Positions 2,883 to 5,293 of a DNA stretch of 14,960 nucleotides are shown piece by piece. A program made the translations under genes and the position numbers. The notes beneath the pieces were generated by a model, which was not told the origin of the DNA, did not search any database, and was given only the letters and a program-made list of their open reading frames with translations. How positions within the stretch are numbered: the first letter of the stretch is position 1; every line of letters begins with the position of its first letter. The DNA comes from an uncultured archaeon. Its GTDB lineage: Archaea > Asgardarchaeota > Thorarchaeia > Thorarchaeales > Thorarchaeaceae. The stretch is from positions 1 through 14,960 of the forward strand of contig CAYHAA010000029.1 of the NCBI GenBank assembly GCA_964354495.1. Direction: 5' to 3'.

Positions 2883-3039
2883 TTGAACTATCACGTCATC
2901 TTGACAAGAAGATGCAATTTGAACTGCTGCTACTGCCATGGAGGAGAGGAAGGAGGGCGCCGCTCTCGTGGTTGAAAAAAAAAGGGATGGAAGACCCTCC
3001 TCTATCTCGGCCGTCATGCTTGTGTACGAGGGAGAGTCA
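2883..3039 (+). pseudogene. Truncated 5' remnant of an AF0577-like radical SAM gene (homologue of 4211..5293)
   Basis: 2883-2948 translates (M)NYHVILTRRCNLNCCYCHGGE vs MNYHIILTRRCNLNCSYCHGGE at 4211. In-frame TGA at 2973-2975. Decayed homology continues in shifted frames: ATGGAAGAC (2987) vs TTGGAAGAC, and VMLVYEGES (3013-3039) vs DILLYGGEP. Confidence 0.88.
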
Positions 3040-3054
3040 TATGATATACTCAAT

Positions 3055-3282
3055 ATGCTGATCAACTTCACATTGAACGACTGTCAATTTTGGTGGACAA
3101 CAACCAGTGAGTATGTTCAGGCAACATATCTACGTGCATATGTTCATCTGTTCGAGAATCAGACGATAATAAACGAACAATCTGTTGATCTTCAATACGA
3201 TAAGCCGTATATTGACGGCCCAAACGATCCTGATTGGAACTCTTCAATATCCTCACATGTGTGGATTGAGTTGGTTGTGTAA
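3055..3282 (+). CDS. Hypothetical protein or orphan C-terminal fragment of an extracellular beta-rich protein
   Basis: Protein-like, N/T/W/Y-rich sequence (NFTLNDCQFWWTTTSEYV...). AT-richer than upstream DNA (22/60 GC in 3121-3180). Fused in frame to the decayed rSAM remnant, so the ORF-track call 2938..3282 is probably a chimera. Confidence 0.45.
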   Translation: MLINFTLNDCQFWWTTTSEYVQATYLRAYVHLFENQTIINEQSVDLQYDKPYIDGPNDPDWNSSISSHVWIELVV

Positions 3283-3350
3283 TGGCTCTCTCAGGCATAG
3301 GTTAGTATCTCTTCAAAAGGTACTTAGGCATCTGTGAGAAGTGCGTAGTC

Positions 3351-3408
3351 TAGGTACCGTGAGGTAAAACAAAAATGAGTAGGTACCGTGAGGTAAAACA
3401 AAAATGAG
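3351..3408 (+). repeat. Perfect 29-bp tandem duplication TAGGTACCGTGAGGTAAAACAAAAATGAG x2
   Basis: Copies at 3351-3379 and 3380-3408 are identical; each contains an SD-like GTGAGGT and an ATG. Confidence 0.97.
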
Positions 3409-3703
3409 TAATAGTAATCCTACGTATTGCCCGAACTGTGGGACACCTGTAAGTGCGAATGACTTCTTTTGTCCCAAATGCGGAAAAAATCTAAAAGGCC
3501 CTGTTAGTCAAACAGGAGTACCTAGTGCTTATGGAGCCTCACCTGTGGGAGTAACAGTTATTCAACAGGCACCATCACAGTCACACTTCTGGCGTAACTG
3601 TTGTATTTGCATAGGGCTACTTGTCTTTTTGTTCCTCTTTTGGCCTTTAATAGCACTTCTATTCTTTGGTGTGAGTGTTTGCTGGATATGTTCTGCGTTT
3701 TGA
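3404..3703 (+). CDS. Zinc-ribbon membrane protein with Cys-rich C-terminal hydrophobic segment
   Basis: CPNCG-x9-CPKCG zinc ribbon, P/Q/S/G-rich linker, hydrophobic tail bracketed by CCIC and CWIC; SD GTGAGGT upstream. Confidence 0.85.
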   Translation: MSNSNPTYCPNCGTPVSANDFFCPKCGKNLKGPVSQTGVPSAYGASPVGVTVIQQAPSQSHFWRNCCICIGLLVFLFLFWPLIALLFFGVSVCWICSAF

Positions 3704-3746
3704 GTGTAGGTGTAGTAAGGGCAACAGGCAGCTCACGGGTCGTGTC

Positions 3747-4103
3747 TTGACGTTCCTTCCGGAGTGGAGACGGGCGAGCAAGGCCGGCCGGTACGAGCGA
3801 TCTGATGTCAAGACGGCATCATATCGGCTGAGTATCACGCTCTCAGAGACCCACCGCGCCTATCTCGAAGAGCAGAGACAGAAGTTCGGGCTGTCGTATG
3901 CATCGATGATCCGATCGCTCATCACGCAGCGTATAGAAGGCCCTATACCACACTCTCAGATGGAATCAGTTGCACATGTGCAATCAGAATCGTCCGAGCG
4001 TTCATTCTGCAAGGTACCCGATGCAGGCAATATATCGGCATTGAACACCGAACTCAAGGCACTGTTCGCCCGTCTTCCGTGTCAGGAACAGAAAGGTACA
4101 TAG
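3747..4103 (+). CDS. Ribbon-helix-helix (CopG/Arc-like) DNA-binding protein; start uncertain
   Basis: YRLSITLSETHRAYLEEQRQKFGLSYASMIRSLIT fits the strand-helix-G/S-turn-helix RHH pattern. TTG 3747 is the first in-frame start downstream of the zinc-ribbon gene. GC-rich (35/60 in 3781-3840). Confidence 0.65.
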   Translation: MTFLPEWRRASKAGRYERSDVKTASYRLSITLSETHRAYLEEQRQKFGLSYASMIRSLITQRIEGPIPHSQMESVAHVQSESSERSFCKVPDAGNISALNTELKALFARLPCQEQKGT

Positions 4104-4107
4104 GACT

Positions 4108-4163
4108 AGATGGGCATGTGCATCGTGACCGCAGGGTGCCCTTGCGTCATGATGTGTCAATCT
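4108..4163. other. 56-nt imperfect inverted repeat (hairpin) between the RHH and rSAM genes
   Basis: Core CATCGTGACCGCAGGG-TG-CCCTTGCGTCATGATG pairs with one bulged base per strand and one G-T pair; outer AGAT/ATCT and GGCA/TGTC extend it. Confidence 0.7.
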
Positions 4164-4210
4164 GATTCTTGGCCCCTGTGGTCACTCCTCTATGTTCAGG
4201 GCGCAGGCTC

Positions 4211-5293
4211 ATGAATTATCATATCATTCTCACCCGCAGATGTAATCTCAACTGCTCATATTGTCATGGTGGTGAACAGACAGAGGACACAGAGCTCCAG
4301 TATTCCTTGGAAGACTTGGCTCGATTTCTCAAGAGAGAGAGAACATCAACTGACATACTATTGTATGGGGGAGAACCAACGATTCGAATTCCGCTCATCT
4401 GCGAGCTTATGTATAGATTTCCAGATGCACGTTACACGCTTCAGACAAATGGTTTATGTCTCAATCAGATTCCGCCGGATAGTGTTAGGCGATTTCAGAC
4501 GATTCTGGTTTCGATTGACGGTACAGAAGCTATTACGGATGGATACAGGTCAAAAGGCGTATATCAGCGAGTATTGAAGAATGTGCGCTGGCTCGATGAA
4601 ACTGGATATTTGGGGGATGTCGTCGCCAGAATGACTGTATCTCAACAGACAGACATCCACAGAAACGTGCGCCACTTGATTGATCTCAGAAGTCCATCCT
4701 TTGATCATGTGCACTGGCAACTCAATGTTGTATGGGATGCTGAGAATAATTGGACCGATTTCGATGGCTGGATCGCGAACTCCTATAATCCGGGAATTAC
4801 GAAACTAGTTGAAGAATGGGTGGCCAAAATGGAAGAAGGGATAGTTGAGGGAATCGTCCCATTCTTGCCACTTGTGCATACAATGCTCACAGGAAGGAGC
4901 GAGCAACTGAGGTGTGGCTCAGGAATCGATACATTCGCAATTCACGCTAACGGAAGCATTGGTGTTTGTCCTATCTCTCCGGACTGGGAATCCACGATTG
5001 TGGGCAATATCTGGGAAACAGAACCTCGTGACATATATGACATCATGAGGGTCAGCGAACCCTGTCCGTCCTGTGAAGTGTATGGCATCTGTGGCGGCAG
5101 GTGTCTTTTTGCCAACAGAGAGAGGCTCTGGGGCGCGGCCGGATTCAACAAAATCTGTGAAACCGTGAAGCACCTAATCTCAACAATCAGAGTGCGGATT
5201 CCTGAAATCAAGAAGCTCATTGACGAAGGATATATCGCTATCGAGGACTTCAATTATCCAAGGTACAACAATGGCTGCGAAATCATCCCCTAG
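4211..5293 (+). CDS. Radical SAM/SPASM protein, archaeal AF0577 (TIGR04084)-like family
   Basis: CNLNCSYC (CxxxCxxC), YGGEP, SIDG, SPASM cysteines (CGSG..., CPIS, CPSCEVYGICGGRC), C-terminal YNNGCEIIP recalled as typical of the family. ATG 4211 preferred because it aligns with the remnant start. Confidence 0.9.
   Translation: MNYHIILTRRCNLNCSYCHGGEQTEDTELQYSLEDLARFLKRERTSTDILLYGGEPTIRIPLICELMYRFPDARYTLQTNGLCLNQIPPDSVRRFQTILVSIDGTEAITDGYRSKGVYQRVLKNVRWLDETGYLGDVVARMTVSQQTDIHRNVRHLIDLRSPSFDHVHWQLNVVWDAENNWTDFDGWIANSYNPGITKLVEEWVAKMEEGIVEGIVPFLPLVHTMLTGRSEQLRCGSGIDTFAIHANGSIGVCPISPDWESTIVGNIWETEPRDIYDIMRVSEPCPSCEVYGICGGRCLFANRERLWGAAGFNKICETVKHLISTIRVRIPEIKKLIDEGYIAIEDFNYPRYNNGCEIIP

Follow-up and report, generated by a model that had tools for sequence, protein, structure and literature searches.

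In a Thorarchaeota metagenome-assembled genome, we found a gene for a radical SAM (S-adenosylmethionine) enzyme whose first ~50 codons have a different ancestry from the rest of the gene. The native start of the gene is still present upstream, as a damaged fragment that we will call the ghost. The genome (G000) is 3.30 Mb and 97.7% complete, and the stretch that we analyzed, "the window," is the whole of its contig C29 (14,960 bp, with a GC content of 0.477). All of the genomes that we compared are metagenome assemblies. We think it fairly probable that a site-specific integrative element, now decayed, supplied a surrogate promoter and ~50 codons to this gene. The start of the radical SAM gene is probably a recurrent integration site. 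The features that define the locus are:

1237-2721, minus strand: C39-like peptidase gene (Pfam Peptidase_C39_2, 26.7 bits), the divergent neighbor that anchors the native position of the radical SAM gene
2722-2882, no strand: native divergent intergenic region, with a Shine-Dalgarno-like GGAG 13 nucleotides (nt) before the ghost's start
2883-2961, plus strand: the ghost, 79 nt of the native "type-A" 5' end of the radical SAM gene (TTG start, 26 codons), which would correspond to the remnant on the attL side
4211-5293, plus strand: intact radical SAM/SPASM gene, full length relative to TIGR04084 (rSAM_AF0577)
4211-4360, plus strand: surrogate "type-B" 5' end of the intact gene, codons 1 to ~50, borne by the insert (from the identity profile and the tree)
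4361-5293, plus strand: native body of the gene, from the YGGEP codons to the stop (83% nucleotide identity to genome G012)

Positions 2883-2948 of the ghost encode nearly the same N-terminus as positions 4211-4276 of the intact gene. The two peptides are identical at 20 of 22 residues (the differences are V5I and C16S), and the start codon is TTG in the ghost and ATG in the intact copy. At the nucleotide level, 20 of the 66 positions differ, nearly all of them synonymously, and no exact run exceeds 7 nt (AACTGCT). The counts and the run length reproduce those in a first-pass annotation of the window. The ghost's match to the intact N-terminus is significant in a protein search of the whole genome (E = 4.7e-8), and the ghost is also found if the N-terminus from the closest relative is the query (E = 9e-13). 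It scores 42.7 bits against the family profile. The first-pass annotation also placed a Shine-Dalgarno sequence before the ghost, divergent from the protease gene, and this holds: the ghost begins 162 nt from the start of the peptidase gene, and the GGAG lies at the same distance in the closest relative, G012. The ghost is damaged by a 2-nt insertion at codon 24 (a +2 frameshift), which is followed by an in-frame stop at 2971-2973.

The ghost resembles the radical SAM gene of G012 more than it resembles the intact copy in its own genome. It is 91% identical to nt 1-77 of the G012 gene, and the similarity to G012 stops at 2961. Across the first 66 nt, the ghost matches G012 at 62 positions, while the intact copy matches at only 47. 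The TTG start and Cys16 are shared by the ghost and G012. For codons 1-22 of the ghost and G012, the nonsynonymous divergence (dN) is 0.019 and the synonymous divergence (dS) is 0.31. The ghost is the native 5' end of the host's radical SAM gene.

We found no radical SAM signal past 2961: the family profile, run on six-frame pieces, gives this frame -1.5 bits, and local nucleotide alignment gives p ~ 0.8 relative to shuffled sequences, both of which are at chance level. The first-pass annotation had traced the ghost to near 3040, which is ~80 nt past the supported end, but it was correct that the DNA becomes AT-richer there (GC is ~0.41 from ~3000 to 3450). A resemblance to the gene at 3022-3039 (VYEGES) has chance-level scores and we do not claim it as ghost; the ghost of another genome, G034, also reads YEGE.

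The 5' end of the intact gene has a different relationship to G012. In a codon-based alignment, the intact gene is 71% identical to G012 at nt 1-66, 51% identical at nt 67-150, and 83% identical from nt 151 to the end. The comparison to P0016, a type-B gene, gives the reverse pattern (80%, 65%, and 64% for the same three segments), and the gene body is just 61-65% identical to type-B genes at the nucleotide level. The two types of N-terminus differ in sequence: type B reads GGEQT-EDTE...KERT..T.L.YGGEP and the common type A reads GGEETGPDTE...KDDD.QLMLYGGEP. Ancestry switches at the LYGGEP codons, at about nt 150. Relative to G012, the body has dN = 0.096 and dS = 0.74 (dS is 0.90 for the peptidase gene), and synonymous sites are saturated in the first 50 codons.

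Phylogenetic trees show the same switch. In a tree of the gene body, G000 and G012 are sisters (support 100/100) and are joined by G017 (96/94). In a tree of the 5' end (the first ~165 nt), it is the ghost that is sister to G012 (99/96), followed by G017 (95/89), and the intact 5' end lies within a type-B clade (99/96). The path length from the ghost to G012 is 0.25, and the corresponding path for the body is 0.26. The first-pass annotation had reasoned that 5'-end replacement would appear as a switch in ancestry within the intact gene, and separate trees show this, with the switch near nt 150 and with the ghost grouping with G012 as the body does. Across the family, the type of 5' end (A or B) forms a mosaic pattern with respect to the body. 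Judging from these comparisons, the intact gene is a chimera of a type-B start and the native body.

The chimeric gene appears to encode a complete enzyme. The protein scores 363.5 bits against TIGR04084 (the cutoff is 225), with residues 6-360 aligned to model positions 2-347, and it matches Pfam's Radical_SAM with 46 bits. The translation includes the radical SAM motif CxxxCxxC (CNLNCSYC, residues 11-18) and the C-terminal cysteine-rich SPASM region (CGSG...CP...CPSC...CGGRC). In a literature search, we found no mention of the accession TIGR04084. The public gene call, P0001 (4409-5293, 294 amino acids), begins at Met67. It misses the true start at 4211 by 66 codons and therefore lacks the CxxxCxxC motif.

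The first-pass annotation had suggested that the remainder of the disrupted gene might lie elsewhere. A protein search of the 3.3-Mb genome found no second radical SAM body, no missing 3' part, and no other fragment of the family.

The surroundings of the gene are conserved. In 20 relatives from at least 10 genera, we see a thioredoxin-like gene, the C39-like peptidase gene, a divergent radical SAM gene, and a convergent GNAT gene. (The peptidase, which is 86% identical to its G012 homolog at the amino acid level, is syntenic in 18 of the 20 relatives examined.) A peptidase gene that diverges from one intact radical SAM gene, which had been put forward as the form of an empty site, is thus the conserved layout. 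Empty sites are present in G012, G017, G010, G028, and G036, where the peptidase gene is 130-260 nt from a single radical SAM gene. According to the body tree, G012 and G036 are sisters of two genomes with occupied sites, G000 and G079. The flanking DNA of G012 is 82% identical to that of G000, and its alignment covers window positions 1-2808, then 2883-2961 (at 91% identity), and then 4212-5294 (at 80% identity). Among the relatives, the gap between the peptidase and radical SAM genes varies from 0.13 to 3.3 kb and contains different genes. The empty sites, the ancestry switch, and the absence of a second body all agree with the earlier proposal that this locus is a site of integration or replacement.

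We scanned 87 genomes of the order, using a 60-residue N-terminus as the query. Of the 74 genomes that have the radical SAM gene, 71 have no second copy of its 5' end nearby. Besides G000, the ghosts are in G034 (genus g8) and G079 (genus g10), so the arrangement recurs in three genera. G034 has an in-frame, 66-codon, type-A ghost that lies 173 nt from the peptidase gene and ends with MFYEGEP; it is followed by a 1.1-kb insert and an intact type-B gene. G079 has a 59-codon ghost that ends with LMLYGGE, a 2.4-kb insert, and an intact gene with a type-B-like 5' end; the putative element of G079 lies at ~26,360-28,905 of contig CAVSBO010000017.1. The ghost of G079 is sister to the empty-site genome G036 (100/98), as is the body (100/100). 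On the left, homology to G036 reaches nt 164 of the radical SAM gene; on the right, it picks up again from nt 2. The ghosts of G034 and G079, two of the three, stop at YGGE(P), which is the point where ancestry switches in G000, and in both of them the next nucleotides are ATTTTGA.

This recurrence also bears on the idea that the ghost and the intact gene are an old and stable pair of paralogs, or that the ghost is a functional short open reading frame (ORF) or leader peptide. The nearly exclusive synonymous change between codons 1-22 of the ghost and G012 would fit with this. But 71 of 74 genomes lack a second nearby 5' copy, the ghost is cut short and carries a frameshift, and the three ghosts have unrelated tails. 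Furthermore, only the ghost groups with the vertical orthologs; the intact 5' end does not. The stable two-copy arrangement that the first-pass annotation named as an alternative was not found among these genomes, and we consider the probability of either form of this explanation to be close to negligible.

The insert in G079 contains an integrase. A 403-amino-acid tyrosine recombinase (PF00589, 48 bits; phrog_1, E = 2.8e-15) begins 27 nt past the stop of the ghost. At the other end of the insert is a 74-amino-acid ORF that is similar to Fusello_VP2 (27.3 bits, which is just at the cutoff; phrog_15706, E = 2e-8). The integrase ORF is uninterrupted, so it is not split by integration in the manner of SSV-type elements. 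Searches for further copies of this integrase found only itself in the contigs of the genomes and none in viral contigs. The first-pass annotation had drawn an analogy to elements that provide a substitute 5' end for their target gene, and this analogy is strengthened by the presence of a tyrosine integrase in the equivalent insert.

The segment TAYGGNGGNGA, which encodes YGGE, is present at the putative attR in all three genomes and at the putative attL in G034 and G079. No other nucleotide stretch of the radical SAM gene is as conserved as the one for YGGEP.

We propose the following mechanism. A mobile element would integrate into the radical SAM gene at or next to the segment that encodes YGGEP, at about nt 150-168. 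The right end of the element would carry a leader, a promoter, and a variant of the first 50-55 codons, all belonging to the element. Integration would push the native start upstream, where it becomes a dead ghost (the attL side), and would fuse the element's start in frame to the native body (the attR side), so that the enzyme stays intact. In G000, the element would later have decayed to 1.25 kb, with the loss of the integrase and of the distal two thirds of the ghost.

Several results weigh against this proposal. First, the supported part of the ghost in G000 ends at nt 79 instead of at the proposed core (nt 150-168), which obliges us to assume a subsequent deletion or rearrangement. Second, a Pfam scan and tblastn found no integrase or integrase remnant within 2962-4210 or elsewhere on the contig; in particular, tblastn gave no integrase signal for 2962-3400. 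Third, none of the three genomes allows an exact core repeat of attL and attR to be defined (in G000, part of attL is lost). Fourth, the three inserts have no cargo in common, beyond the parts derived from the radical SAM gene and the leader that is shared by G000 and G034. Fifth, identity to the surrogate is only 72-82% for the nearest type-B 5' ends known, so no donor is identified. Sixth, in approximately unbiased (AU) tests with the 165-column alignment of the 5' ends, native placement of the intact 5' ends was not rejected (p = 0.137 for G000 and p = 0.515 for G079). Because the AU tests are not significant, the case for the chimera rests on the identity profile, the indel signature, and the support values in the trees, and not on a formal test of topology. 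Finally, a search for sequencing runs in which linkage or excision could be checked found none with this stretch; all of the runs returned had just 5-7% of the sampled words.

Some of these results are what would be expected from homology-facilitated illegitimate recombination, which occurs in naturally transformable bacteria and combines a one-sided homologous anchor with an illegitimate join. There would then be no site-specific element. Instead, DNA from another Thorarchaeota lineage, with a type-B radical SAM gene and other genes upstream of it, would have entered by a homologous crossover in the YGGEP segment and by an illegitimate join within the native 5' end, at nt 79. (As a variant, ordinary homologous transfer from a relative might have brought in a locus that already had a ghost.) Two different junctions would explain why the ghost ends at nt 79 and ancestry switches near nt 150, and the insert in G000 has no integrase. 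Frequent exchange is suggested by the variable gap between the peptidase and radical SAM genes (0.13-3.3 kb), and the mosaic of type-A and type-B 5' ends relative to the body also favors this explanation. Also, the conserved YGGEP segment would be a natural hot spot for homologous crossovers. As in our locus, this kind of recombination leaves foreign DNA beside a target that is partly duplicated or deleted. However, its junctions would be scattered and no integrase would take part, while a common motif marks the end of two of our three ghosts and an integrase is present in one insert. That the ghosts of G034 and G079 both end at YGGE(P) and both continue with ATTTTGA is a repetition that would not be expected. 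The integrase gene of G079 abuts the ghost, and the relatives of a cargo family in the G000 insert (described below) are near integrases. We judge this explanation, the main rival, to be unlikely, and we continue to favor a decayed site-specific element.

The 1.25-kb insert of G000 (2962-4210) is a mosaic:

2962-3315, no strand: AT-richer filler (GC ~0.41) with no supported gene
3316-3329, plus strand: first copy of a 14-nt motif, AAAGGTAC[AT]TAGG, 88 nt upstream of the zinc-ribbon gene
3351-3408, plus strand: perfect tandem duplication of 29 bp (100% identity), which spans the start codon of the zinc-ribbon gene
3404-3703, plus strand: gene for a zinc-ribbon membrane protein (Pfam DZR and Zn_ribbon_3, 31-33 bits), cargo of the insert
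3720-4103, plus strand (open frame 3675-4103): gene from a rare ribbon-helix-helix (RHH)-like family, truncated at both its 5' and 3' ends (from alignments to P0121 and P0123)
4086-4210, plus strand: surrogate leader and promoter region, with the second copy of the motif (4092-4105), a hairpin with a 12-bp stem (~4125-4185), and a 25-nt block

The surrogate leader links the inserts of G000 and G034. Across 82 nt, it is 75% identical to the region upstream of the intact radical SAM gene in G034, which is its only DNA match in the 87 genomes. A near-invariant 25-nt block within the leader, TCATGATGTGTCAATCNGATTCTTG, is enclosed by the hairpin and is present in 2 of 400 Asgard genomes, namely G000 and G034. 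Those two were also the only genomes among the 400 with the leader, and an exact-pattern scan of metagenome contigs returned none. The hairpin (4125-4185) has a counterpart at 5665-5730 of L039, on the minus strand. The predicted fold of the leader has a z-score of -2.5, and 6 base pairs are maintained by changes on both sides between G000 and G034, although this comparison involves just two sequences.

The 3.3-Mb genome contains just two copies of the 14-nt motif, AAAGGTAC[AT]TAGG, one at 3316 and the other at 4092. Both are within the insert, 776 nt apart, and they flank the segment with the zinc-ribbon and RHH-like genes. The same motif is found 53-117 nt upstream of type-B radical SAM genes in G034 and in the metagenomic contigs L048 and L051. 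Its role might be that of an operator, a promoter element, or an additional attachment site. We also considered if the motif encodes the C-terminus of a conserved upstream protein, and we rejected this because the upstream frames contain stops in G034, L048, and L051.

The RHH-like gene is a fragment from a rare family. It is 66% identical to P0121, with the alignment beginning only at residue 32 of P0121, and 36% identical to P0123. Compared to these proteins and three others, it lacks ~31-38 codons at its N-terminus and the last few codons at its C-terminus. The segments on either side meet at ~3705-3720, where GC content steps from 0.44 to 0.52. An exhaustive HMMER search of 1.8 billion representative proteins yielded just 5 hits to the family, and 3 of the 87 genomes of the order have a member, including G000. 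We found no members in JGI metagenome contigs and none with a word-index protein search. P0123 is encoded directly after a Phage_integrase gene (L057), and members of the family are near L057-type tyrosine integrases in G030:C51 and G107:C50. The ORF at 3675-4103 has no match in Pfam, NCBIfam, or PHROG, but its protein-language features from the Atlas are closest to CopG/RHH clusters (0.92), and a pattern of a beta strand and two helices can be read in SYRLSITLSETHRAYLEEQRQKFGLSYASMIRSLI. The first-pass annotation had listed an RHH gene here. We amend this to a truncated, RHH-like gene from a rare family, other members of which are near integrases.

One of these relatives is at the same locus. 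In another genus, L069 (G107:C50, 7690-17211) includes an element that lies ~300 nt beyond the GNAT gene. The element contains an L057-type tyrosine integrase (54% amino acid identity), homologs of two ORFs from L056, and the N-terminal part of an RHH-like family member. The radical SAM gene at this locus has a frameshift near residue 230.

The zinc-ribbon protein has a C-terminus that is both cysteine-rich and hydrophobic, and it has no homolog in the equivalent gap of the 20 relatives. In the 29-bp tandem duplication, the ATG of the zinc-ribbon gene is included, and the first copy opens a mini-ORF of 10 codons. The filler at 2962-3315 has no match in Pfam, PHROG, or the Atlas and no DNA match in the 87 genomes, and a 114-amino-acid ORF at 2938-3282 is probably not real. 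Scans with Rfam and for tRNAs found nothing relevant.

A second insertion lies on the other side of the gene:

5295-14905, no strand: separate low-GC insertion of 9.6 kb, between the stop of the radical SAM gene and the convergent GNAT gene

This block has a GC content of 0.40 and is bounded by a 7-bp direct repeat, CCCTAGT, at 5288-5294 and 14906-14912. In G012, the stop codons of the radical SAM and GNAT genes overlap (CTAG); in G000, both genes keep their stops by way of the two copies of CCCTAGT. The sequence at 14906-14960 is 96% identical to G012, from the last codon of the radical SAM gene onward. In all 19 of the relatives where we found the GNAT gene, it is 0-55 or ~840 nt from the radical SAM gene, and among the 20 relatives checked, the block is unique to G000. 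It contains no integrase or transposase. Its genes for an ABC ATPase, a permease, and a 173-amino-acid protein have a paralogous cassette on contig C10 (83%, 68%, and 60% amino acid identity). The block has just two weak matches (E = 0.001-0.004) to L056, which is a mobile-element contig, so a link to the same family of elements is unproven.

The 9.6-kb block raises the question of whether everything from 2962 to 14905 is one island of 11.9 kb. Such an island would have brought a complete foreign radical SAM gene that replaced native codons 27-359, and the stumps of the native gene would be the ghost and the last codon and stop (CCCTAGT). Native-like sequence does resume at 14906 with the last codon of the radical SAM gene, which would let the ghost and CCCTAGT be read as the two ends of one deleted gene. 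Furthermore, both flanks of the intact gene are low in GC or look foreign, and the ORF at 5572-5766 weakly resembles a gene that is next to the RHH-like homolog on L056 (31% identity, E = 0.002). But nt 151-1083 of the intact gene have diverged from G012 to the same extent as the flanking DNA (83% versus 82% nucleotide identity; dS of 0.74 versus 0.90 for the peptidase), and only the first 150 nt are discordant. The donor would need to be exactly as related to the host as G012 is, and the ABC transporter cassette looks host-like, given its paralog on C10 (83%/68%/60%). Since G012 matches the gene body as closely as it matches the flanking genes, we consider a large island to be very unlikely. 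The first-pass annotation had left the choice between this island and a small integrase-less module that restored the gene; the small module is the alternative that is favored.

The ends of the contig bear on the quality of the assembly. Each end of the contig (1-55 and 14906-14960) is shared with a neighbor, C2 or C19, over exactly 55 nt, and C19, where the GNAT gene continues, begins exactly at CCCTAGT, the junction between the island and native DNA. This right-hand break hints that the sample might contain strain variants with and without the 9.6-kb island. As a 14,960-bp segment of the assembly graph with 55-bp overlaps to both neighbors, the contig implies strain variation at the locus, and no sequencing run with this stretch was found; both would be consistent with an artifactual join of co-occurring type-A and type-B strains. 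However, none of the positions 2961/2962, 3705, and 4210 has a k-mer-length repeat that could produce a false join, and two unrelated assemblies have the same architecture on contigs of 88 kb and 111 kb. The chimeric gene also retains a full-length open frame (363 bits), so we view an assembly artifact as exceedingly improbable.

We noticed a few other unusual copies of the gene. One genome has two radical SAM copies on different contigs, L054 (G069:C62) and L055 (G069:C81). Its type-B copy, P0017, has a non-native upstream context (a TPR protein and an alpha/beta hydrolase), and the second copy could be a second locus, a mobile copy, or contamination of the bin. P0128 (L059, L060, and L061) is a 97-amino-acid fragment of the radical SAM 5' end in which the third cysteine of the cluster is replaced by tyrosine (CNLNCLYY). 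It is cut after ~codon 85 and is found on five metagenomic contigs, adjoining an M24 peptidase and without a radical SAM body nearby. P0129 and P0130 are further short fragments of the 5' end. Finally, at G011:C169:520-1593, the ortholog is in three pieces, and the middle piece has three in-frame TGA codons; this might be a pseudogene or sequencing errors.

The nearest precedent for our proposal is the integration of SXT/R391 integrative conjugative elements into the 5' end of prfC. These elements provide a new promoter and N-terminal codons, which yields a hybrid gene and a displaced native stump. Similarly, in our case, the 5' part of a conserved protein-coding gene is hit, a functional hybrid gene would result, and a native stump lies at the other junction. 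Unlike SXT/R391, our case involves an Asgard host with a radical SAM/SPASM gene as the target, and the surrogate comprises ~50-55 codons and a leader of ~120 nt. Also, the inserts are tiny (1.2-2.5 kb) and lack conjugation genes, and in the window the integrase is missing. To our knowledge, there are few reports from archaea of promoter capture at the start of a protein-coding gene. What is new here is the target gene, the host lineage, and the unusually long surrogate 5' end; in the window, the proposed element is present only as a decayed remnant.

Known elements from archaea share some of these properties. Among integrated elements of Thaumarchaeota, all 14 integrations into protein-coding genes were 3'-distal, and 5'-distal recombination is described as considerably less frequent (PMC6563490). 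As in our study, those elements involve tyrosine recombinases, comparisons of occupied and empty sites, att sites that are short or hard to define, and frequent decay (PMC6563490); in contrast, here the 5' end is targeted and the duplicated segment is ~150-165 nt. In the Asgard lineage Atabeyarchaeia, the elements described have tyrosine integrases and range from a few kb to tens of kb, with mini-elements and CopG/RHH genes (PMC11529989). They use short motifs, such as an 11-bp attachment motif (PMC11529989), and our lineage is Thorarchaeota instead. In the passages that we searched, there is no mention of a radical SAM target or of the replacement of gene starts (PMC11529989).

Asgard archaea have few known integration sites or mobile elements. 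Here, a probable 5'-end target recurs in three genera, with clear pairs of occupied and empty sites (G000/G012 and G079/G036). The integrase and the fusellovirus-like gene of G079 offer a handle for linking viruses or plasmids to Thorarchaeota hosts, and for assays of an archaeal integrase with a protein-coding gene as its defined target. Element-borne gene starts would also explain the mosaic N-termini in the TIGR04084 family. For annotators, the locus is a warning, as a ghost can be mistaken for the start of a gene, and the real gene is 66 codons too short in the public record. More speculatively, a still-active family of small, virus-related elements in Thorarchaeota might use the YGGEP segment as its att site and replace the promoter and the first 50-55 codons of the gene. 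We regard this as possible but doubtful. If it is true, then a host enzyme would be under element-encoded control, via the 14-nt motif, the structured leader, and the RHH-like regulator.

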